From the UHGV virus genome UHGV-0038496: a stretch of 64,000 bases of DNA; one strand, written 5' to 3'. Positions 20,980-63,833 of this stretch are shown here, piece after piece. The position numbers and the translations under genes were made by a program. The number at the start of each line of letters is the position of its first letter. The first letter of the stretch is position 1. The DNA comes from a virus. The notes under the pieces are model-generated. The model was not told the origin of the DNA and searched no databases. It saw only the letters and a list, made by a program, of their open reading frames with translations.

Positions 20980-22092
20980 TTAGTTAGTAGGACTTGCAAA
21001 CAGGTTAATATCTTTCCAATTTTCCCATTCAAATCTTGCATCCAGCATTTCTTCGAACTGAGCAGCGTCAAACTCGATTGTAATTTTACCCTCACCAACT
21101 TCCAGAGGAATTGGAGGAATTTCGAAGGATGGTAACGGATCCAAAGGTGTACTTGGAGTTGGATTAGCTCTGTAGGTAATCGGGTTAAGCATACGGTAAT
21201 CCAGGCCAAGGAAAGATGAAATGCCGTTAACACCATCGACAAGCCACTGCGGATGTTTGGTCACGTCAGTTTCCTGGTGGTAGTTTTGCATCCAATCATC
21301 CAACATACCAGCACCTTCGTACCCCATGTAGCCCAGAGCTAATGGTCCTTTCCATTTCCACAGTCCACCAAGTAACCGTGCAAACAATCCTTTCTTAGCC
21401 ATGGCTGCTGCACCACCCGCAGCTGCACCACCTGCGGCGGCACCACCGAGAGCACCTGCAACACCTCCGGCAGCTTTAATCATACCCAGGGTTGCGGCAA
21501 CAGCTTTGACGATTCTCAGCAATTTCCATACGGCGTTAACAACAACTAAGATGGAGAAAGCATAGCCTACCCATTTAGCTTTGCTGAATGTTTCATCAAC
21601 AGTGTCACTTGTATCTTTGACTTCTTTTTTCAGCAGACCAAAGTGGTCTTTGACTTGCAACCACCAGATACGGATACTGACAATCGTGTTGTTCAATTCA
21701 CCAACAATGTCGTTCAGACCCTGGATAAATCCAGATACAAACTCACCAGCCTGCATGATCATTGGGGTGAATGTTTCTCCTGTGCGGATCAGGGTGTAAT
21801 AAAACTCGGTGAGTTCATCTGACCATGTGGTGAACAGTTTTTGTTTAGTCAATTCGATGAAAGTTTTCAAACGGTTTTCAGCCAGAACGTTAGATTTCTG
21901 CATACGTTCATAACCAGCAGCTGACGCTTCGTTCATGTACTTAGCAACGTATTTCATCATTTTGGCTGTTTTGACCTGGCCTTTCTGCATCATGTCCATG
22001 AATTGTTCCATAGACAGCTCAGACAGGTTGAAAGCCTCTTTTGTTGCTTTAATGAACGGCTCGTAAGCACCTGGCATTGCTTCAGCTACCAA
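20980..22092 (-). CDS. Tail tape measure protein, 3' exon
   Basis: 370 aa; Gly/Ala-rich hydrophobic segment AAGGVAGALGGAAAGGAAAGGAAA; frame opens only a few codons upstream (stop TAG), continuing the 22907..24142 reading frame after an intron. Confidence 0.7.
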   Translation of the reverse strand: MVAEAMPGAYEPFIKATKEAFNLSELSMEQFMDMMQKGQVKTAKMMKYVAKYMNEASAAGYERMQKSNVLAENRLKTFIELTKQKLFTTWSDELTEFYYTLIRTGETFTPMIMQAGEFVSGFIQGLNDIVGELNNTIVSIRIWWLQVKDHFGLLKKEVKDTSDTVDETFSKAKWVGYAFSILVVVNAVWKLLRIVKAVAATLGMIKAAGGVAGALGGAAAGGAAAGGAAAMAKKGLFARLLGGLWKWKGPLALGYMGYEGAGMLDDWMQNYHQETDVTKHPQWLVDGVNGISSFLGLDYRMLNPITYRANPTPSTPLDPLPSFEIPPIPLEVGEGKITIEFDAAQFEEMLDARFEWENWKDINLFASPTN

Positions 22093-22906
22093 TGTCCAGA
22101 CAGTTCGCTACGCTGTCCCGGTGTGCTAAGACACCCGCCACACATTTCTGTGTGGAGCAGACTATATCTTCTCTGGATAACCAGAGCCAACCATTTCAGA
22201 GGCGCTTGCCTCTTACACCGCTACACTCATCACGGTTAGTCGTTGAGCACATAACTTATAAATCTTTCAGCAGTTTAGACCATGCTTTCTTAGTCTTGAT
22301 TCGAACAATTGCTGATCTGCAAGCACCAAATTCTTCCATCAAATCTGTTGTATTCTCAAACCGCCTGTTATAAATTTCGATAACCTCTTCTGCTGTGAGC
22401 TTATGATTGGCATTTGACTCACCAGAGGCATCATTCAGGCCATTTGCAAAAGCATGTTTCTGATTGCCAGATCGAGTAACATACTCCAGATTATCTTTAT
22501 GGTTGTTTGCTTTATTACCGTCCTTATGGTTAACTTCCATCCCAGGTTGTGGAGGTTCACCAAGGAAAGTAAGGGCAACTATTCTGTGAACAAGATACAA
22601 CACACATTTGCCGTTTACCCGAAAGTAAACGCGTTTGTAACCATTGTGTATTGTCTGCTCAGTCAACTGCTTCCGTGTGTTTCTTCTTGTAGAGAATATT
22701 GCACCGTCCTCTCTACAGAAGTACCCATCGTGACCAGGAACTGGTCGGATTTCTAAGTTACTTCGCTGCGGATTATCCATTGTTACATCCTCCAAACTTT
22801 TTACCATACCCCGAGTAGTTACTTCGGGCCATAAACATGTTACCACATTTATTTGGTATTTGGAAGGCTTTAGGAGCTTCCCGCAATTAGGTTGGTTTTA
22901 TAACAG
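22093..22906 (-). mobile_element. Group I intron in tape measure gene (approximate boundaries)
   Basis: About 810 nt between the two TMP exons; contains HNH ORF; 3' part carries AACGACTA...GATATAGTCTG...GGCGGGTGTCTTAGCACACC core shared with the terminase and nrdD introns. Confidence 0.6.
22256..22780 (-). CDS. Intron-encoded HNH homing endonuclease
   Basis: Start at MDNPQRS with GGAGG Shine-Dalgarno; motifs RIVALTFLG and VNHKDGNKANNHKDNLE. Confidence 0.8.
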   Translation of the reverse strand: MDNPQRSNLEIRPVPGHDGYFCREDGAIFSTRRNTRKQLTEQTIHNGYKRVYFRVNGKCVLYLVHRIVALTFLGEPPQPGMEVNHKDGNKANNHKDNLEYVTRSGNQKHAFANGLNDASGESNANHKLTAEEVIEIYNRRFENTTDLMEEFGACRSAIVRIKTKKAWSKLLKDL

Positions 22907-24142
22907 CTAGTATGTCAACTGTTGTTTTAGTTCCTCAGACATTACCTGTCCTTTACCAAGCATTTGCTGTATCGCCATAATACCACGCTGATATTTTACT
23001 TCATCAGCACCATATGACGCAGCATATTGCGAATAAGCAGAGAACAGATCACGGACTTCCTGCCCTGTCATTTGGTTTTTGGCGTTTACTGCCATTTGAG
23101 AGTAGCCTTGCAGACCTGATTTCAGGTCGAAGCCTAATCTCATAGCTTCACCTTGTACGAATGCAACTTCCGAGTTAGCTTTCGTAGGATCACCCATAAC
23201 GTTGGTAAGAGCAGCACTCGCACCTTCCATCATGTGACCGGATTTGTTAACACTGACAATTGCAGAGAATGCGGTGTACGCTTTAGTCAAATCCATGACT
23301 GTTGTTCTTAATTTATTAAAAGCGGTGCTCAGAGTCATGGTTCCAGCAGCAGCATTAGCAAACCCCTTCTGCATTGCAGCGATCTGGGCGTTGAAAGTTG
23401 ACTTACCTATCAACCCTTTTGCATATTGCTGTTCAACCTGACGGTAGCCACCTAACATATCCCTAAAATTAGCCCCATAACGAGCTGTCAGACGCGTTGA
23501 CATGTTGGTAAGGTGTGTTAGCCTATCCATACCCACATTATTGCGTTTGGGCGTTCCTGAGCTGCCATTTTGCTTGTGCCATCTGTTCATTGCAGCAGTC
23601 TGGGCACGAACAAGTGCTGGGTTGGAAGCTACACCACCCATGTTGGGGTTACCTGGGATATATCTGAAGGTATTTGCTCTGGACAGAGCACGGGGTGAGA
23701 CTGGTTTGTTGGAGAAGTAGGAACTACCTAAGCCACCACTTTTCTTAGCCAGTTTGGATTGTTCCTGATAGAATTTACGCATTCTCACCAATTCAGGATC
23801 TTTGGCAGTCATCTGACCGACAACCTGTTTCCTTCTGGCGTTCTCACGTTTTTCTATCGCAGATCGTACAGCAGCTTCACGTTTAGCCTGGGATACAGCT
23901 TCCTGATGCATACGGCGTTGCTGTTGCAACTGTTTATTCTGTACCCTCTGAACAATCTGACCAGTCTTCTCCATCGATGCTTGCCAGGCTTTCAGAGGAT
24001 TCCCCTTTCCCAAAGAATCGCCCAGCTTTGTAAACTCCCTGCCTAATCCTTTAATTCTTTCAATAGCTTTTTTATAGCTATTGTTATCGATCTCAAATGT
24101 AATTCGGTTTGTGGTTGTGGCAACCACTTTGTTACCAGCCAT
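22907..24142 (-). CDS. Tail tape measure protein, 5' exon
   Basis: 411 aa; TMP-like composition (Ala/Gln-rich, GYSQMAVNA core); ORF ends where intron core begins. Confidence 0.7.
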   Translation of the reverse strand: MAGNKVVATTTNRITFEIDNNSYKKAIERIKGLGREFTKLGDSLGKGNPLKAWQASMEKTGQIVQRVQNKQLQQQRRMHQEAVSQAKREAAVRSAIEKRENARRKQVVGQMTAKDPELVRMRKFYQEQSKLAKKSGGLGSSYFSNKPVSPRALSRANTFRYIPGNPNMGGVASNPALVRAQTAAMNRWHKQNGSSGTPKRNNVGMDRLTHLTNMSTRLTARYGANFRDMLGGYRQVEQQYAKGLIGKSTFNAQIAAMQKGFANAAAGTMTLSTAFNKLRTTVMDLTKAYTAFSAIVSVNKSGHMMEGASAALTNVMGDPTKANSEVAFVQGEAMRLGFDLKSGLQGYSQMAVNAKNQMTGQEVRDLFSAYSQYAASYGADEVKYQRGIMAIQQMLGKGQVMSEELKQQLTY

Positions 24143-37134: not shown

Positions 37135-37164
37135 GACAAAAGAAATAGCCCTCCGAAGAGGGCT
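37135..37164 (-). terminator. Candidate terminator/attenuator between terminase and portal (minus strand)
   Basis: AGCCCTC-TTCGG-AGGGCT hairpin followed by ATTTCTTTTG. Confidence 0.4.
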
Positions 37165-37216: not shown

Positions 37217-38002
37217 TTAAATCATCCTCTTATACATAGAGGGTGAAACAATCTTCGGAATAACACATGGCATCGCAACTTCCTCTTTTTCAAGGTAGTT
37301 GATTGCAGAAGCAATGGAGTCGGCCCAGTCATCTTTACGGCTAAAGGTTGACCGTTCGCCGTTGAATTTCTCCAGCTCTGTCAAAAATGCTTCCAGTGTA
37401 TCAGGGTCGAAACTTGACCTGACAAGCCGAACCATACCCTGTTGGGCAAGGTTGGCAAACGGTGAGAAACGGGTGAGTTTTGATTTGTTAGACGGCATTG
37501 GGTCTTCTTCCACCCTGAAACCTCCAGCAAGGAGTTTGCGGGATGAAGTAAGAAACTCACTCTTACCTGCCTGACCGGGGTCCACAGAGAAGACAATCAC
37601 ACAATCTTCACCATCAAACTCTGCCTGTTTCCTGATAATAACATCGCGTTCACCAGCTTTCTTGCAGAACTTACCGCTCAAGCCTGTGGAATACCTGCCA
37701 TCATCTACGTTTTCAGGACAATAGTCACCAGAGATGTAGTAGTAACCATCGCTATCCTTGCTGACTTTGATACTGGCTGTATAGTCGGGGAATTTGTTGC
37801 CAGAGGTACGTTCTGTACCAGCTTTATCCCACGCTCTTACAGAAACTGCTCCTAGGGGGACATGATCCGCATCTTTCAAGAATGTGCGACTGAAATAGTT
37901 TGCGCCTTCCGGTTTAGCGAACCAGTTACCATAGAGAAGTTGTGCTTTTTCCAGTTCTGGCAGACCTTCTAGGAATGCAAGATATTCTGGGTTATCACGC
38001 AA
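37217..38002 (-). CDS. Terminase large subunit, 3' exon (nuclease domain)
   Basis: 261 aa beginning LRDNPEYL; upstream frame closed by TGA a few codons earlier, so this is not a complete gene; intron core immediately upstream. Confidence 0.75.
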   Translation of the reverse strand: MRDNPEYLAFLEGLPELEKAQLLYGNWFAKPEGANYFSRTFLKDADHVPLGAVSVRAWDKAGTERTSGNKFPDYTASIKVSKDSDGYYYISGDYCPENVDDGRYSTGLSGKFCKKAGERDVIIRKQAEFDGEDCVIVFSVDPGQAGKSEFLTSSRKLLAGGFRVEEDPMPSNKSKLTRFSPFANLAQQGMVRLVRSSFDPDTLEAFLTELEKFNGERSTFSRKDDWADSIASAINYLEKEEVAMPCVIPKIVSPSMYKRMI

Positions 38003-39009
38003 GCAGATAGGGTTATCGTGTCCTGGTGTTCAGGGCCGGACGCAACTCCGACCCCCGTTGGTTCCATCCACCGCATCCATGCTCGGCTGCATGTTACCAT
38101 GCAGAGCAGACTATATCACGATCCTGTTTCTCACAGGACCCTTCGCTTTTCGAGCACCATCAGCTTGTGCCCTACTCCCTTTCGGGATAGTCGTTGAACT
38201 ACAATTACCAATCATAATTGTTTGAAATGTAAGTATAAGTTTTCCTTTCCTTGATACTTTTCACTGTACGGTGAGAAACCCCCCACAATCTTGCCACCGC
38301 ACCAACGGATAAGCCTTTTTGTAAATCTTCGCAGATACCAATCACCTTGTGCTCACTTATTCTGTTAGCTGAAGGTATTTCCCTAAAGTGAAACTCCGCA
38401 GAGATATCTGGGTATACTGATCCATTCTTTATACCACTTACAAGGGTTTGATTGACACCGAACATCTGACAGATATCTTTTACCCTTGCACCTTGCTCTA
38501 ATAGCCTGCATATTTCAAGGGCAGTGGCATCATCCAAATACCTGTATTTATTTACATAATCTTTTTTAAGTCCAGTTTCATGGGCGTGGTGTGTGTTTTC
38601 CTCTGGGGTTGTCCACTCAAGGTTCCATGCGGCGTTATTCAACTTATTACCGTCCAAGTGATTTACTTGGGTTTTCACGCTAGGATTATCATTATCAACA
38701 AAAACCTCAGCAACAACTCTGTGAACAAGCACTTGGAACTTTTTGCCGTCCTCACACAGGGAAACCACAGCATAGCCTGTCTTTTTATGCGTAACAGGTT
38801 GAAGGAATTTATTAGAATACAAACTATAAATTCTGCCATCATATGTCACGCAATAGTGTGGGTAACCTAAAAATCCTAAATTCTTCATTTCAAACACTCC
38901 CTACTACAGTTTCGGAAGAATAATTATAGCTGCTGATTATCTGAAAGTCAATCAGATTTTCCAGCAATTAACGAAGTTATTCGACGTGCATTACTGCACG
39001 AAGCCACTA
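38003..39009 (-). mobile_element. Group I intron C in terminase gene, carrying HNH ORF (approximate boundaries)
   Basis: 3' part (38003-38204) contains AACGACTATCC...GATATAGTCTGCTCTGCATGGTAACATGCAGCCGAGCATGGATGCGGTGGATGGAACCAACGGGGGT, about 50/51 nt identical to nrdD intron 2. Confidence 0.6.
38205..38897 (-). CDS. Intron-encoded HNH homing endonuclease (NUMOD-like N-terminus)
   Basis: 230 aa; QVLVHRVVAEVFV, VNHLDGNKLNNAAWNLEW HNH motif; C-terminal helix-turn-helix-like region. Confidence 0.8.
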   Translation of the reverse strand: MFEMKNLGFLGYPHYCVTYDGRIYSLYSNKFLQPVTHKKTGYAVVSLCEDGKKFQVLVHRVVAEVFVDNDNPSVKTQVNHLDGNKLNNAAWNLEWTTPEENTHHAHETGLKKDYVNKYRYLDDATALEICRLLEQGARVKDICQMFGVNQTLVSGIKNGSVYPDISAEFHFREIPSANRISEHKVIGICEDLQKGLSVGAVARLWGVSHRTVKSIKERKTYTYISNNYDW

Positions 39010-39327
39010 CAGATTAATGGTTGCACCAATAAAGGCGATAGAGAGGGGTTTTGGAACTATCTCAACACCTTTACCGTTAACATACGTGTACTTCTCGATC
39101 AACTCTTCTGGCGTATCGCCGAAGATAAATTCCCCATCCCTACGGATGAAATAACGCTTAACGCCACACTTACTTTCATCGGGGTAGCCTTCGTCATCAA
39201 GCCACCAACGAACAAGTTTGGCTAAATAATGTTCAGAATCGGGGTTACAGCTGATCACCATTCGCGAAGAGTATTTTGATTTCGACCTCATACGGGAAAT
39301 CAGGTAGTCGATTTGCTCCCATTCGAA
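39010..39327 (-). CDS. Terminase large subunit, internal exon (approximate boundaries)
   Basis: Frame FEWEQIDYLISRMRSKSKYSSRMVISCNPDSEHY...IVPKPLSIAFIGATI; ISCNP resembles ATPase motif III; ends just before a DNP-type motif that continues in the 3' exon. Confidence 0.55.
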
Positions 39328-39684
39328 CTGAGTCGTTTGTGTTCAGGCAAGGTCGCTAATCTTGCCCCGCCACCATGTGGCAGCTGCATGTCTCCATGCA
39401 GACCAGACTATATCTTATAAGCGGTAACAACCGCCTATCCTCCCGTTTCGGCAGTCTTAAAAGACTGTGGGTTTCCCCAGCCGCTTGGCCCTAACGCCCG
39501 TAAGCGATAGTCGTTGAGCACACATCCTATCAGGATGCTTCGCTGCGGATTATCTAAATCAACACACTATTACCATACCTTCGGTCTTTCTCCAAAGCCA
39601 ATATTATGTTACCATAATAGATTGGTGGTGTCAATAGTAAAGATTTCCCCGCAATTAGGGAGGTTTTACGAGAGCTACCAACTA
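39328..39684 (-). mobile_element. Group I intron B in terminase gene, ORF-less (approximate boundaries)
   Basis: Contains CAACGACTATCG...GATATAGTCTGGTCTGCATGGAGACATGCAGCTGCC...CCTGAACAC core elements (minus-strand sense). Confidence 0.5.
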
Positions 39685-39735
39685 ACCCTCGTCAAAGCAT
39701 ATTAAAGTATATTCCACTTTTGTCCCGCCGGATCG
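39685..39735 (-). CDS. Terminase large subunit mini-exon encoding Walker B motif (approximate boundaries)
   Basis: Minus-strand frame ...TKVEYTLICFDEG then TAG; LICFDE fits the hhhhDE Walker B consensus at the expected distance (about 100 aa) after the Walker A in the 5' exon. Confidence 0.5.
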
Positions 39736-39975
39736 CTACTCCGACGCGGTGTGCTAAGACACCCGCCACATATTACCATGTGGAACAGACTATCTCTTCC
39801 ATCCTTGGCGTGCCGTTTGGATCACCAATCGCTTGTGATTCTACTCCCCTACACTCATCGGGGATAGTCGTTACACTCGGTTTCAATTAATCCTTTAACC
39901 GTAGCTCGGTATTGTCCTTTTGTCAAGGAGTTTCACCGAATTAGGCACGAAGGGCAGGTTTGTTTACCCTTGATG
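39736..39975 (-). mobile_element. Group I intron A in terminase gene, ORF-less (approximate boundaries)
   Basis: Contains GTAACGACTATCCCC...GAGATAGTCTGTTCCACATGGTAATATGTGGCGGGTGTCTTAGCACACC core, paralogous to the tape measure intron. Confidence 0.45.
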
Positions 39976-41079
39976 ATTCAGCTTATCTTGGACGTATTCC
40001 ATGTGGCAGTACTTGATTACCGCACCATCCCTTTTCTTATTCCACTTACCTGTCTTTGCATCGTAATATGGAAAAGTAAACTTATGATCTTTCTCCCTAA
40101 ATTTTGGCCTCATATATTCAGGAAGATCCAGATACACACTTAGTGCTTTAGGCCACAGACCGCCTTCACCTTCCAGTTGTGGGGTTGTCCTACGGAACAT
40201 CACCACAGAGGTGTTTGGGTCATCTATCATCTTTAGTGGGAGAAGCTGCAAAAGAAAGGATTTACCACTGTTGCCTGTCACTGCAATGCAGTTTTCCAGT
40301 CTGGTGATAAAATAGCCTGTTGTGGTAGCAAAACAATATTTGTAACCATCTTCCGGCTCAAACTCTTCGAACGTTGCATCGTTATTAAGAGCAATCGTAC
40401 CTGCACGTTCGTTGGAGAACACAACTTTGTAACCCTTTTCGAAGAAGATCTGTGCATTGAATCCCAGAGATGATCCGAGGTATTGCAAGAAATCAGCCTG
40501 TTCTTTCGTTGGAACAACGTAGACATGCGAGTCATTACCGTTCAGGTAAATCTCATACCAGATCTGCAACAACTGGCGACGATCACAGTTATACCATTCA
40601 TCTGTGAATTTGTAATATCTTGCCTTTTCTTTCAGCTCTTCGTCAGAAATATCAAGGCCAGTACCACCCATGTTCACAAACGTGGTTTGCATACGCATTG
40701 CCAACTCATCGTTAGCATGTTGTTCGGCCACTTCACTGAAACAAAGTGTACCGTAATCTGTTCCGTCTTCTGGTACATACAGGACTGTGTGCTCGTCAGA
40801 CAATTCCTGACAAATACCATCCTGCACAACCCTGGTCAATTTATCGCATTCCAGCTTAACAAACTCTTCAGGCTGGATAAACATAGCCTTACCAGTTTCT
40901 TTATCAAACTGGAGGATATCTTGACCATCCCAGTCTGAGATTCTGATCCAACCGTTAGGTGTCATCACCTCATGTCGCATTGACAAACAACCCGCTGCCC
41001 CACCAATGATCAGGAAGTCGGCATCATTTTCCAGAATCATTTGTTGTTTACGGGAGCATGGGCCATACATTTTAGCCAT
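39964..41079 (-). CDS. Terminase large subunit, 5' exon (ATPase N-terminus with intein in P-loop)
   Basis: ORF as called (371 aa); extein sequence IIGGAAG / SGKSFLL reconstitutes Walker A GAAGSGKS once residues 31-270 are removed; the true 5' splice site lies somewhere before the in-frame stop at 39964. Confidence 0.75.
   Translation of the reverse strand: MAKMYGPCSRKQQMILENDADFLIIGGAAGCLSMRHEVMTPNGWIRISDWDGQDILQFDKETGKAMFIQPEEFVKLECDKLTRVVQDGICQELSDEHTVLYVPEDGTDYGTLCFSEVAEQHANDELAMRMQTTFVNMGGTGLDISDEELKEKARYYKFTDEWYNCDRRQLLQIWYEIYLNGNDSHVYVVPTKEQADFLQYLGSSLGFNAQIFFEKGYKVVFSNERAGTIALNNDATFEEFEPEDGYKYCFATTTGYFITRLENCIAVTGNSGKSFLLQLLPLKMIDDPNTSVVMFRRTTPQLEGEGGLWPKALSVYLDLPEYMRPKFREKDHKFTFPYYDAKTGKWNKKRDGAVIKYCHMEYVQDKLNHQG
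40270..40989 (-). mobile_element. Intein (mini-intein, about 240 aa) in terminase Walker A motif
   Basis: Begins CLSMRHEVMTPNGWIRISDW (intein block A pattern) and ends ...ENCIAVTGN followed by +1 Ser; flanking exteins form an intact P-loop. Confidence 0.7.
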
Positions 41080-42206: not shown

Positions 42207-42282
42207 TGGCACCCCGTACAGGACTCGAACCTGTAACCTATGGCTTAGAAGGCCACTGTTCTTCCATTTGAACTAACGGGGC
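42207..42282 (-). tRNA. tRNA-Arg (anticodon UCU), CCA encoded
   Basis: 76-nt cloverleaf on minus strand: acceptor GCCCCGT/ACGGGGT, D stem GTTC/GAAC, anticodon stem GTGGC/GCCAT with loop CTTCTAA, T arm ACAGG-TTCGAGT-CCTGT, discriminator G, 3' CCA. Confidence 0.85.
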
Positions 42283-61430: not shown

Positions 61431-62392
61431 GAACAACATCGTGGCCTTACTGAGTGATCAGTATTGAATAACTCTGTTAACGCTAATTGCAAAGCGGTGT
61501 GCAGCGAAAAGCTGTGCTAACGGTTCAGAGGCAGGTGACTGCATTATGAGTAAGGGAGCCTAAACCCTTTGGACTAGGGGCAAGGTAATACCGTGCTAAG
61601 AATAGTGGCATCCTCTTAACTAGGAGGATGGTATGAATTTAGAATATGTTGATTGTGGGGATTACACAATCTATGAAGACGGTTATGTGGTTGACCATAT
61701 AGATGGCTATTGTGGTTGGGGGTACAGAAACGGTGGATACAGAGAAGCCTATGTTTACATAGGTGGAGAAAAGAGAAGAATGAAAGTTCACAGGTTAGTA
61801 GCTATGGCTTTTATTCCAAACCCTCTGAATTTGCCAGTTGTTAATCATCTGGATGGGAATAAGATGAACAACCACAGAGACAATCTTGAGTGGTGCACAC
61901 AAGGTCGTAACAATATACATGCAATTGAGACAGGATTAAGAAACGTCGCTGAATCGAACAGTAAGAGGTGGGATGACTCTGCATTCAGAGAAAGAACGGC
62001 TTCCAGAATAAGTGCGACACAAAAAGAACGCGGGACAACCGCTGGTAGGAATAATCCTCGTTTCAAGTATGAGATTGTTAAAGACGGAGATGTGTACACG
62101 GCTCCAGAGTTCTTCAATAAATTCAAAGATGTTTATGGTTTAAAACATTTGGAAAATCTGATAGGTAATTGTTGTGCATACCTCAAGCACAACTTGAAAA
62201 GAAAATTCTGGCTTAAAGTTGGAGCAGAGCCACGCTACGCCAAGAAAGAGTAAAACCTTCGGATGCCACTATTTATGTGTATCGACTATCCCGTAAGGGA
62301 GTAGGTGGGAGATGCTCCCCATCCAAAAGCAGAGGATCTCTAACTAGAGATCGTGATATAGTCATTGCCTACAGAAATGTAGGAGAATCAAG
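61431..62392 (+). mobile_element. Group I intron 1 in nrdD with HNH ORF
   Basis: 962 nt; 5' exon ends in U, intron ends in G; 3' part contains GATCGTGATATAGTC, identical to the start of the terminase intron C core; splicing restores HVH-DLDYIISPLTNCCLV. Confidence 0.65.
61633..62253 (+). CDS. Intron-encoded HNH homing endonuclease
   Basis: 206 aa; AGGAGG Shine-Dalgarno; HRLVAMAFIPNP and VNHLDGNKMNNHRDNLEW. Confidence 0.8.
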   Translation: MNLEYVDCGDYTIYEDGYVVDHIDGYCGWGYRNGGYREAYVYIGGEKRRMKVHRLVAMAFIPNPLNLPVVNHLDGNKMNNHRDNLEWCTQGRNNIHAIETGLRNVAESNSKRWDDSAFRERTASRISATQKERGTTAGRNNPRFKYEIVKDGDVYTAPEFFNKFKDVYGLKHLENLIGNCCAYLKHNLKRKFWLKVGAEPRYAKKE

Positions 62393-63055
62393 GATTTAGA
62401 TTACATAATTAGTCCATTAACGAACTGTTGTCTTGTAAATTATCCAGACATGCTGGAGCATGGATTTACAATAGGTAACGCAACCATAGGAACACCAAAT
62501 TCTATTAATGTAGCTGCAACAGTTCTTTCACAAATTTCAGCTGCTGTTTCTGGTGGGCAGTATGGTGGGCAGACGTACAGTCACATAGACCGCTACCTTG
62601 TCCCCTATGTAGAAAAAACACATAATAAAAACTTATCTTTCTGTAAAAAACACGGTTTGCCGGAAAGCGTTGCTGATGAAATGACAGAGAAAGATGTATA
62701 TGATAGTATGCAATGTTTTCTCTATCAAATCAACACCTTAACCAGCACCAACGGGCAAACTCCGTTTTTGACTATCAGTTTAGGTCTTGATACTTCTAAA
62801 TTTGGGAGGATGATCACTAAAAACTATCTTATGGTTCATAAAGGTGGCATTGGTGAAGACCATATAACCCCAGTATTCCCTAAAGTCTTGTTCTTCCTTG
62901 AAGAAGGGGTGAACATGAACCCAGGTGACCCAAATTACGATTTGAAACGCCTGGCTTTGGAATGCTCAGCAGAGCGAATTTACCCAGACTTCGTTTCTGT
63001 GCCTTTGAACAGAAAAGTGACAGGATCTACTGCTGGCGATGTTACAAGCATGGGT
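62393..63055 (+). CDS. nrdD: NrdD, exon 2
   Basis: 221 codons in frame; TNCCLV...GFTIGNATIGTPNSINVAA...QYGGQTYSH...NGQTPFLTISLG...DPNYDLKRLALECSAERIYPD colinear with T4 NrdD. Confidence 0.8.
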
Positions 63056-63833
63056 AAACTACTATTGCTCATGTAAAACCTATCTAAACGGGGGAACTCT
63101 CTACGGAGAAAATCCCGTGCTAAACGTAACAGAACTCCCGGAGAAAAGGAGTCCTGAAATGAGAAAACAAATTCGTGATTTTGAAGGGTATGAAATTGAC
63201 GAGATGGGAAATGTTTATTGCACCCGCTACGAAAAGGAAAGAATCATCCATCCGTGGGAAGAAATAAACACAGGCTACCTTCTTGTCAGGATACGCAAGA
63301 ACAAGAAAACTGTTTGCCTGAGGGTTCACAGACTTGTTGCTGAAGCGTTTTTACCGAATCCAGACAATTTGCCCTATGTTAAGCATAAGGGTGACAACAA
63401 GAAAGATAACAGCGTATACAATCTTGAGTGGGGTGCTTGCCCAGATAATACCCAGGAAGGTTACGACAACAACTGTTATACTTTTTACACAAGGTGTCAC
63501 GGTGTGAAAGCTACCAACAAACTGACTGGTGAAGTTTTCCACTTTAAGAGTCTGAGATGCTGTGCTGATACTTTAGGGGTGGATAGAAAAAGAATATCTG
63601 CTATCCTGAAGCGTGGAGCACCTAATAACTATGATTACGAGTTCTGTTACGAAATGCCGAACGACTAACCGTGATGAATGTAGCGGTGTAGGGTGCAAGC
63701 CTATGGCACTCCAAAAGATAGGCACACGAAAGTGTGAAGATATAGTCTGATCTGCATGGTGACATGCAGCCGAGCATGGATGCGGTGGATGGAACCAACG
63801 GGGGTAGTGTTGCGAGCTACTCTGAACACAATG
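63056..63833 (+). mobile_element. Group I intron 2 in nrdD with HNH ORF
   Basis: 778 nt; splicing joins ...VTSMG to CRSFLSKYN (T4 NrdD has SPMGCRSFLS at this point); 3' core about 50/51 nt identical to terminase intron C. Confidence 0.65.
63159..63668 (+). CDS. Intron-encoded HNH homing endonuclease
   Basis: 169 aa; AAGGAG Shine-Dalgarno; HRLVAEAFLPNP and VKHKGDNKKDNSVYNLEW. Confidence 0.8.
   Translation: MRKQIRDFEGYEIDEMGNVYCTRYEKERIIHPWEEINTGYLLVRIRKNKKTVCLRVHRLVAEAFLPNPDNLPYVKHKGDNKKDNSVYNLEWGACPDNTQEGYDNNCYTFYTRCHGVKATNKLTGEVFHFKSLRCCADTLGVDRKRISAILKRGAPNNYDYEFCYEMPND

Follow-up and report, generated by a model that had tools for sequence, protein, structure and literature searches.

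The 64,000-nucleotide (nt) stretch of the virus genome UHGV-0038496 analysed here, hereafter the window, carries a large terminase gene, TerL, that spans 41079..37217 on the minus strand. From sequence comparison we are highly confident that its interruption at 39016..38022, on the same strand, is a 995-nt group I intron with an HNH homing-endonuclease gene. The initial annotation had described this region as a third terminase intron carrying such a gene, and both parts of the description held: two more group I introns lie upstream in TerL, and matches to Rfam, covariation, a U·G wobble with a terminal G, restoration of the reading frame and matches to HNH_3 and I-HmuI agree with one another. 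The element, referred to below as intron 3, and the exons on either side of it comprise the following features, in which aa stands for amino acids, ORF for open reading frame and MFE for minimum free energy.

39017..39333, minus strand: TerL exon 3 (TQFEWEQ...IAFIGAT and the first two bases of an Ile codon), placed by tblastn, junctions and reconstruction
38022..39016, minus strand: predicted group I intron 3 of TerL, 995 nt, IA-like with P7.1 and P7.2, placed by intron-less alleles, homologs, Rfam, covariation and MFE fold
38921..39016, minus strand: 5' part of the ribozyme (~96 nt) with P1, P2, the 5' strand of P3, P4, P5 and the 5' strand of P6, from the ortholog Rfam alignment and pair counts
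38205..38888, minus strand: predicted HNH homing-endonuclease gene, 227 aa plus stop, in the P6 loop, from Pfam, PHROG, 1U3E and dN/dS (the ratio of nonsynonymous to synonymous substitution rates)
38022..38207, minus strand: 3' part of the ribozyme (~186 nt) with the 3' strand of P6, J6/7, P7, P7.1, P7.2, the 3' strand of P3, P8, the 3' strand of P7, P9, P9.1, P9.2 and the terminal G38022, from Rfam, alignment and MFE fold
37217..38021, minus strand: TerL exon 4 (third base of the Ile codon, then HDNPICLRDNPEYL..., nuclease domain and stop), from tblastn and Terminase_6C

The junctions of intron 3 were placed using two intron-less alleles, those of phages JeffSchatz and WalterGehring, together with six intron-containing homologs. 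The uninterrupted 515-aa TerL of JeffSchatz (MZ501082) reads ...IGATIFDNPVCLRDNPEYL across the insertion site. When this protein was aligned to the window with tblastn, exon 3 reached ...IAFIGATI and exon 4 was matched from DNPICLRDNPEYL..., the aligned 266 aa, which begin with DNPICL, being 89% identical. In nucleotide sequence, alleles free of the intron have GCA ACA ATA TTC GAT AAT (T-I-F-D-N), the JeffSchatz-type site being GCAACAATATTCGATAATCC, and the window reads ...GCA ACC AT/TAATCTGTAGTGG... on the 5' side and ...GAACACCAGG/A CAC GAT AAC on the 3' side, the slash marking the junction. We place the intron at 39016..38022 because the sole cut that preserves the length of the protein also leaves a U at the end of the exon and a G at the end of the intron. 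The 5' splice site falls after U39017, the last intron base is G38022, and the junction cuts an Ile codon between its second and third base (ACC AU/A CAC GAU). The predicted ligated junction is ...GGUGCAACCAU/ACACGAUAACCCU, the predicted spliced protein reads ...IAFIGATI-HDNPICLRDNPEYL... (GATI/HDNPICLRDNPEYL at the junction), and the peptide predicted to span the junction is GATIHDNPICLR.

The same boundaries recur among relatives. The 5' junction ...ACCAU/UAA is common to all six homologs, and the 3' end is in each case the G that precedes A(U/C)(U/A)(C/U) GAU AA. At positions -5 to -3 all alleles with the intron read ACC and those without it ACA; within P1 the C of ACC has a guide-sequence G as its partner. 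As read from these alignments, the insertion site is inside the conserved GATI(F/H)DNP motif of TerL.

These positions revise the initial annotation in several respects. Its nuclease-domain ORF at 37217..38002 (minus strand) does match Terminase_6C, and the frame of this ORF is indeed closed upstream by a TGA, which we read at 38032..38030. The intron limits it gave, 39009..38003, have to be moved to 39016..38022, the last 19 nt of that interval (38021..38003) being exon that encodes (H)DNPICL. Its junction IGATI/(L)RDNPEYL is not the right one either, as intron-less alleles hold (F)DNPVCL between the two pieces. The internal exon had been taken to end at a stop at 39007; the ORF 39007..39291 does end in TAG at 39009..39007, but this TAG forms the first bases of the guide UAGUGG, and the exon ends at 39017. 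Finally, a single RNA core of 200 nt had been placed after the ORF; the core is split instead, with ~96 nt before the ORF and ~186 nt after it.

The RNA flanking the ORF has the parts expected of a group I ribozyme. An internal guide sequence, UAGUGG, lies at 39009..39004, and the end of the exon, ...AACCAU, pairs with it so that U39017 stands opposite a G, giving a U·G wobble; this wobble at the 5' splice site and the terminal G are also present in six of six homologs. The Rfam group I model RF00028, whose gathering score is 50 bits, matches the window in two partial segments, at 38087-38395 (28.6 bits) and 38666-39026 (21.9 bits). Both matches fall below the gathering score because the ORF splits the model, and family membership therefore rests on orthologs and on the alignment. 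The ORF-less ortholog in phage RudolfGeigy (268 nt) matches RF00028 over its full length with 95.6 bits; its P1 places the U·G wobble precisely at the deduced splice site, and it is 86% identical to the core in the window.

Covariation was evaluated in six versions of the intron (window, rV5, RudolfGeigy, 18-1-2, nepoznato and VB-EcoM-WM) from which the insert in the P6 loop, 713 nt in the window, had been deleted. The structure tested was drawn by hand and contained P1, P2, P3, P4, P5, the base of P6, P7 as a pseudoknot, P7.1, P7.2, P8, P9 and P9.2. Its 67 pairs in 12 helices are 99.0% paired across the six versions, and in 20 of the 67 both bases have changed. The observed level was reached in 0 of 500 shuffles, and partners slid out of register paired in 32-46% of cases. 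P7 is invariant across the homologs and hence uninformative in this comparison. In the MFE fold of the ORF-deleted window intron (-112 kcal/mol, z = -5.5), P1-P6, P7.1, P7.2, P8, P9 and P9.2 were all recovered. P7.1, of 4 bp with a GNRA-like loop, and P7.2, of 6 bp with compensatory changes in two pairs, occur in all homologs and sit between the 5' strand of P7 and the 3' strand of P3, an arrangement that is a mark of IA-type phage introns. By the presence of these two helices intron 3 is IA-like, resembling subgroup IA2, and its sequence and predicted fold argue that it would be spliced.

The gene in the P6 loop overlaps the ribozyme, its UAA stop codon falling inside the 3' strand of P6. The initial annotation had placed the gene at 38205..38897. 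A complete HNH ORF is present there, but its likely start is the ATG at 38888 (MKNLGF...), which has GGGAG 8 nt upstream and is kept in all four ORF-containing homologs. The alternative start, GTG at 38897, would give a 230-aa ORF; it directly abuts GGGAG, and both Shine-Dalgarno spacing and conservation favour the ATG.

The encoded protein is I-HmuI-like. Pfam HNH_3 matches residues 54-99 with 28.0 bits (cut-off 24.8) and HTH_23 matches residues 189-215 with 33.7 bits; a second stretch of helix-turn-helix type, at residues ~118-155, is recognised by CENP-B_N (27.0 bits) and HTH_7 (25.2 bits). The ORF also matches PHROG 59, HNH endonuclease (E = 1.5e-53), and residues 8-106 match I-HmuI (PDB 1U3E; E = 4.7e-10). 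Relative to I-HmuI, the His and Asn residues of the HNH motif are conserved (...NH-DGNK-NN...N), and the equivalent of Asp74 is Asn in the window protein. Amino acid identity to orthologs is 84.6% for rV5, 75.8% for 18-1-2 and 61.4% for nepoznato. Against the rV5 ortholog dN/dS is ~0.10 at a dS of ~1, and the protein therefore appears to be maintained by purifying selection. By analogy with its characterised relatives, the protein would act as an endonuclease with a target site of its own.

A candidate promoter overlaps the ribozyme helices that flank the gene.

38923..38951, minus strand: sigma-70-like promoter, TTGACT, 17-nt spacer, TATAAT, 11 of 12 consensus positions

Its -35 element is located in the P5 loop, and its -10 element is the 5' strand of P6, so that acquiring or losing the endonuclease gene would reshape a helix of the ribozyme. 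In the ORF-containing versions TATAAT occupies the same place, with the 17-nt spacer in four of four and 9-12 matches out of 12, the full 12 being found in nepoznato. Three ORF-less versions have a different P6, and there the promoter score is at most 8/12. This distribution tentatively suggests a putative promoter for separate transcription of the HNH gene, carried by the endonuclease cassette. We also looked for a hairpin over the HNH Shine-Dalgarno sequence (UUCC...GGGA), as in T4 I-TevI; z scores of -0.0 to -2.0 were non-significant. A stem of 5-6 bp is predicted in three of four homologs, and the window copy folds differently.

The closest matches to the region come from rV5-like coliphages (Vequintavirinae), with ~79% identity by megablast. 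Over a 24-kb stretch around the gene, identity to rV5-like phages is ~76% across ~37% of the length, a low match indicating that the window phage is a relative outside the searched collection. A 1.1-kb query comprising exon flanks, intron and ORF aligned over its full length with 19 records, rV5 among them, at 74-80% identity. One further record, outside the matches listed, is at least 99% identical and presumably represents a short match to the core. Unannotated MG0656xx records ("Campylobacter phage A142, A141, C7 ...") match the region as E. coli Vequintavirus genomes do, at ~80% and with the same intron; their Campylobacter labels may not agree with the true host.

Across these relatives the site exists in several states. 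It is empty in JeffSchatz, WalterGehring and many others, and of 808 records that match the junction peptide, 751 align with at least 80% of it at a single location. RudolfGeigy, VB-EcoM-WM and JEP1 carry an ORF-less intron of 266-268 nt at the same site. The intron with its ORF is found in rV5, 18-1-2, nepoznato and the window, and 19 records cover at least 80% of the element. One of these carriers, Phapecoctavirus nepoznato, belongs to another subfamily and has the same element at the same site. Compared with the window, its TerL exon 4 is 43.6% identical in protein and 67.7% in nucleotide sequence, its HNH protein 61.4% in amino acids and its intron core 80.6% in nucleotides. As far as sequence comparison can indicate, the patchy states of the site and this pattern of identities are what a homing cycle would predict.

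In the mechanism that we propose, the transcribed RNA would fold into a group I core, P1-P9.2, with the P7.1/P7.2 extension, and the end of the 5' exon, ...AACCAU, would pair with the guide UAGUGG to set the U·G wobble at the splice site. Transesterification initiated by guanosine would then excise the intron after its terminal G38022 and join the exons as ACC AU/A CAC GAU, yielding the uninterrupted 515-aa TerL. On unspliced RNA, translation would end three codons into the intron. The HNH gene may have a sigma-70-like promoter of its own, built into the P5 loop and P6 stem. On the model of I-HmuI, I-BasI and I-TwoI, its protein, with an HNH_3 domain and two helix-turn-helix modules, would attack terminase alleles of co-infecting relatives that lack the intron, nicking or cutting them, and recombinational repair would copy the intron into these alleles.

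Several observations weigh against this interpretation. The window's own Rfam scores are sub-gathering, which is expected given the 713-nt insert in P6. A canonical P10 pairing with the 3' exon, sought by inspection, was not found, and the window copy has ~14 extra nt between P9.1 and P9.2. The promoter is a consensus match only, a regional scan having returned 10 sites where 8.0 were expected. The higher identity to nepoznato of the intron than of the exon could partly reflect structural constraint on the RNA, not transfer.

The terminase could instead be truly split by a free-standing HNH gene, with no splicing and with separate ATPase and nuclease polypeptides that associate. Arrangements of this kind exist, such as mobE splitting nrdA in Aeromonas phage Aeh1 (discussed in PMC7344957), and many GenBank records list the pieces as separate "terminase large subunit" coding sequences (CDSs). 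Yet a complete, covarying group I core flanks the ORF, and its excision restores a gapless 515-aa TerL. Exon 4 moreover lacks an ATG; its first start, TTG at 38002, has no Shine-Dalgarno sequence and would forfeit the conserved HDNPICL. The ~268-nt ribozyme retained by ORF-less copies would also be pointless without splicing, and we regard a terminase split in this way as highly improbable. It seems just as improbable that the intron splices but its HNH protein is a terminase packaging cofactor of the HK97 gp74 type and not a homing enzyme. Packaging can be stimulated by HNH proteins whose genes neighbour those of the terminase (Kala et al. 2014, cited in PMC7344957), and this HNH gene lies within TerL. 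Close relatives with the same TerL, however, lack the HNH gene or the whole intron, and the HNH gene is therefore dispensable for packaging; the I-HmuI-like architecture includes helix-turn-helix modules for site recognition, and the HNH gene travels with the intron into the distant TerL of nepoznato.

The intron might also be real but immobile, its HNH gene an inactive relic heading for loss. ORF-less derivatives among relatives, the expected end of a homing cycle, would fit such a history, as would the Asn that replaces the equivalent of I-HmuI Asp74. We consider this unlikely, as the ORF is intact in four diverged lineages with the strong constraint on its protein noted above, the catalytic His and Asn residues are retained, and the Shine-Dalgarno sequence, start codon and promoter-like elements are conserved. 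A self-splicing intron with a homing-endonuclease gene therein remains our preferred reading of the locus.

The rest of TerL is interrupted as well, and its remaining features are listed here from the start of the gene to beyond its end.

40990..41079, minus strand: TerL exon 1, part before the intein-like insert (MAKMYGPCS...IIGGAAG), from tblastn and reconstruction
40270..40989, minus strand: intein-like insert, in frame, 240 aa, in Walker A (GGAAG/C...N/SGKS), absent from rV5, JeffSchatz and RudolfGeigy
39966..40269, minus strand: TerL exon 1, part after the insert (SGKSFLL...NHQG and the first base of a Leu codon), from tblastn and reconstruction
39717..39965, minus strand: predicted group I intron 1, 249 nt, without ORF; RF00028 44.7 bits, E = 4e-9 (gathering 50); junctions GGG U/...G/UG
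39685..39716, minus strand: micro-exon 2, 32 nt, encoding (L)EYTLICFDEG, the Walker B motif, from junctions and reconstruction
39334..39684, minus strand: predicted group I intron 2, 351 nt, without ORF; RF00028 80.3 bits; junctions GGU/...G/ACU
37147..37164, minus strand: terminator-like hairpin and T run, 3' of the TerL stop; rV5 annotates a rho-independent terminator at the equivalent place

Removal of the three introns and the intein-like insert leaves 1548 nt encoding 515 aa, a protein that aligns with JeffSchatz TerL at 85% identity and without a single gap. This gapless reconstruction validates all junctions at once, those of intron 3 included. The elements are distributed unevenly among relatives. 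Phages of the rV5 type have introns 2 and 3, the Avunavirus 18-1-2 combines the intein-like insert with introns 1 and 3, and intron 1, present in 18-1-2, is absent from rV5; all four elements occur together in the TerL of the window. In the phage collection, coverage of the tandem stretch formed by intron 1, the micro-exon and intron 2 stays below 80% in every record. The micro-exon has to act both as 3' exon for intron 1 and as P1 substrate for intron 2, which makes an obligatory order of the two ribozymes possible. That this one 515-codon terminase gene holds four self-splicing elements, with ribozymes 1 and 2 folding or splicing in an obligatory order and the HNH cassette bringing a promoter, is a speculative combination that we put forward as possible but doubtful.

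The intein-like insert starts with Cys and ends with Asn followed by Ser (GGAAG/C...VTGN/SGKS), as inteins do, but its penultimate residue is Gly, not His. Homologs with 24-46% amino acid identity sit inside unrelated host proteins, namely TerL of Av-05 and 18-1-2, RtcB of the Bacillus phages BCP8-2 and JBP901, and the primase/helicase of Pseudomonas KIL phages. Sequence searches of Pfam, NCBIfam and PDB gave no match to the insert, and a single-sequence AlphaFold model was unusable, with a mean predicted local distance difference test (pLDDT) score of 36.5. The larger homolog in 18-1-2 has a sub-threshold match to LAGLIDADG_3 (E = 0.15).

For annotation, the four TerL fragments should be joined as one 515-aa protein, many GenBank relatives listing separate "terminase" CDSs. 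The intron documents a further case of a homing-endonuclease element aimed at the most conserved motif of an essential packaging gene, and the allele states of its site (empty, ORF-less intron, intron with ORF, and a copy in another subfamily) offer a ready comparative system for the homing cycle. Taken by itself, intron 3 is ordinary and opens no new question; the load of elements on one TerL gene is less so.

Similar signs appear elsewhere in the window. A tape-measure-like gene on the minus strand is split into the ORF 22907..24142, which matches TMP_3, and the ORF 20980..22092. Between the two pieces lies an HNH_3 ORF, 22256..22846 (50 bits), spanned by a weak Rfam group I match at 22138-22927 (24.8 bits), and on this evidence 20980..24142 (minus strand) probably holds another group I intron carrying an HNH gene. 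On the plus strand, a fragment of NrdD, the anaerobic ribonucleotide reductase, at 62450..63076 is followed by an I-HmuI-like HNH ORF at 63039..63668, whose HNH_3 and NUMOD-like matches do not reach the Pfam cut-offs; next comes a group I 3' core, at 63663-63769 (34 bits). A further HNH_3 ORF, 61633..62253 (plus strand), lies just upstream of the NrdD fragment. Judging from these matches, the window phage seems rich in homing elements. A tRNA gene at 42210..42282 (minus strand; Rfam 68.3 bits) precedes the spanin-like and terminase genes and mirrors the tRNA cluster upstream of TerL in rV5.

Among known systems, the nearest is the TerL gene of phage rV5, described in three segments with one intervening sequence containing a homing endonuclease (section "Introns in terminase", PMC3606486). 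In its GenBank record (DQ832317) TerL is a three-segment join, "ORF64ABC", with "ORF65 HNH homing endonuclease" inside, and records of the BASEL phages also annotate an intron of the rV5 type as a join. By sequence and position, intron 3 is the ortholog of the second rV5 TerL intron with ORF65, and its type has thus been known since its description in 2013 (Kropinski et al. 2013). The two share the gene, the exact site (ACCAU/...G/A..C GAU AA) and the placement of the ORF in P6. Their nucleotide identity is ~80% for the complete element and 87% within the ribozyme core, and the HNH proteins are 84.6% identical in amino acids. The two elements differ in the flanking codon, which is His in the window instead of Phe, in the ~14 extra nt between P9.1 and P9.2 of the window copy, and in the start context of the HNH gene, where the window has GTG and rV5 an upstream ATG. 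In contrast to the window, rV5 has neither intron 1 nor the intein-like insert.

At the protein level the closest characterised enzymes are the HNH endonucleases I-HmuI, I-HmuII, I-BasI and I-TwoI, encoded by group I introns of the Bacillus phages SPO1, SP82 and Bastille and the Staphylococcus phage Twort. These enzymes nick one strand. Homing in the I-HmuI family begins with a nick or cut in the intron-less allele close to the site of insertion, after which the intron is copied in by repair. The window protein resembles them in its N-terminal region and HNH_3 domain, its C-terminal helix-turn-helix modules and the location of its gene in an intron loop within an essential gene. It differs in that their targets are DNA polymerase or nrdE, whereas the window gene interrupts the terminase; identity outside the HNH core is low, and Asn stands in place of Asp74. 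The T4 td intron with I-TevI is likewise of IA type, with the endonuclease ORF looped out of P6 and its own expression signals inside the intron. Intron 3 shares the IA-type fold and the ORF in the P6 loop, although I-TevI is a GIY-YIG and not an HNH enzyme, the host gene and ribozyme sequence differ, and the promoter in the window is known as a consensus match only.

Group I introns in terminase genes have also been described elsewhere. Within the same subfamily, Vequintavirinae, the TerL gene of Pectobacterium phage CB7 contains a group I intron with an HNH gene, for which splicing was demonstrated by reverse transcription PCR (RT-PCR; PMC7344957). The CB7 intron lies after about codon 128, near Walker B, and not at the GATI/DNP site. 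We considered its RT-PCR validation as direct support for intron 3 and set it aside on account of this different site, retaining it as an analogy only. A group I intron also resides in the large terminase gene of Lactobacillus phage LL-H (Mikkonen & Alatossava 1995), which intron 3 resembles in its choice of host gene.

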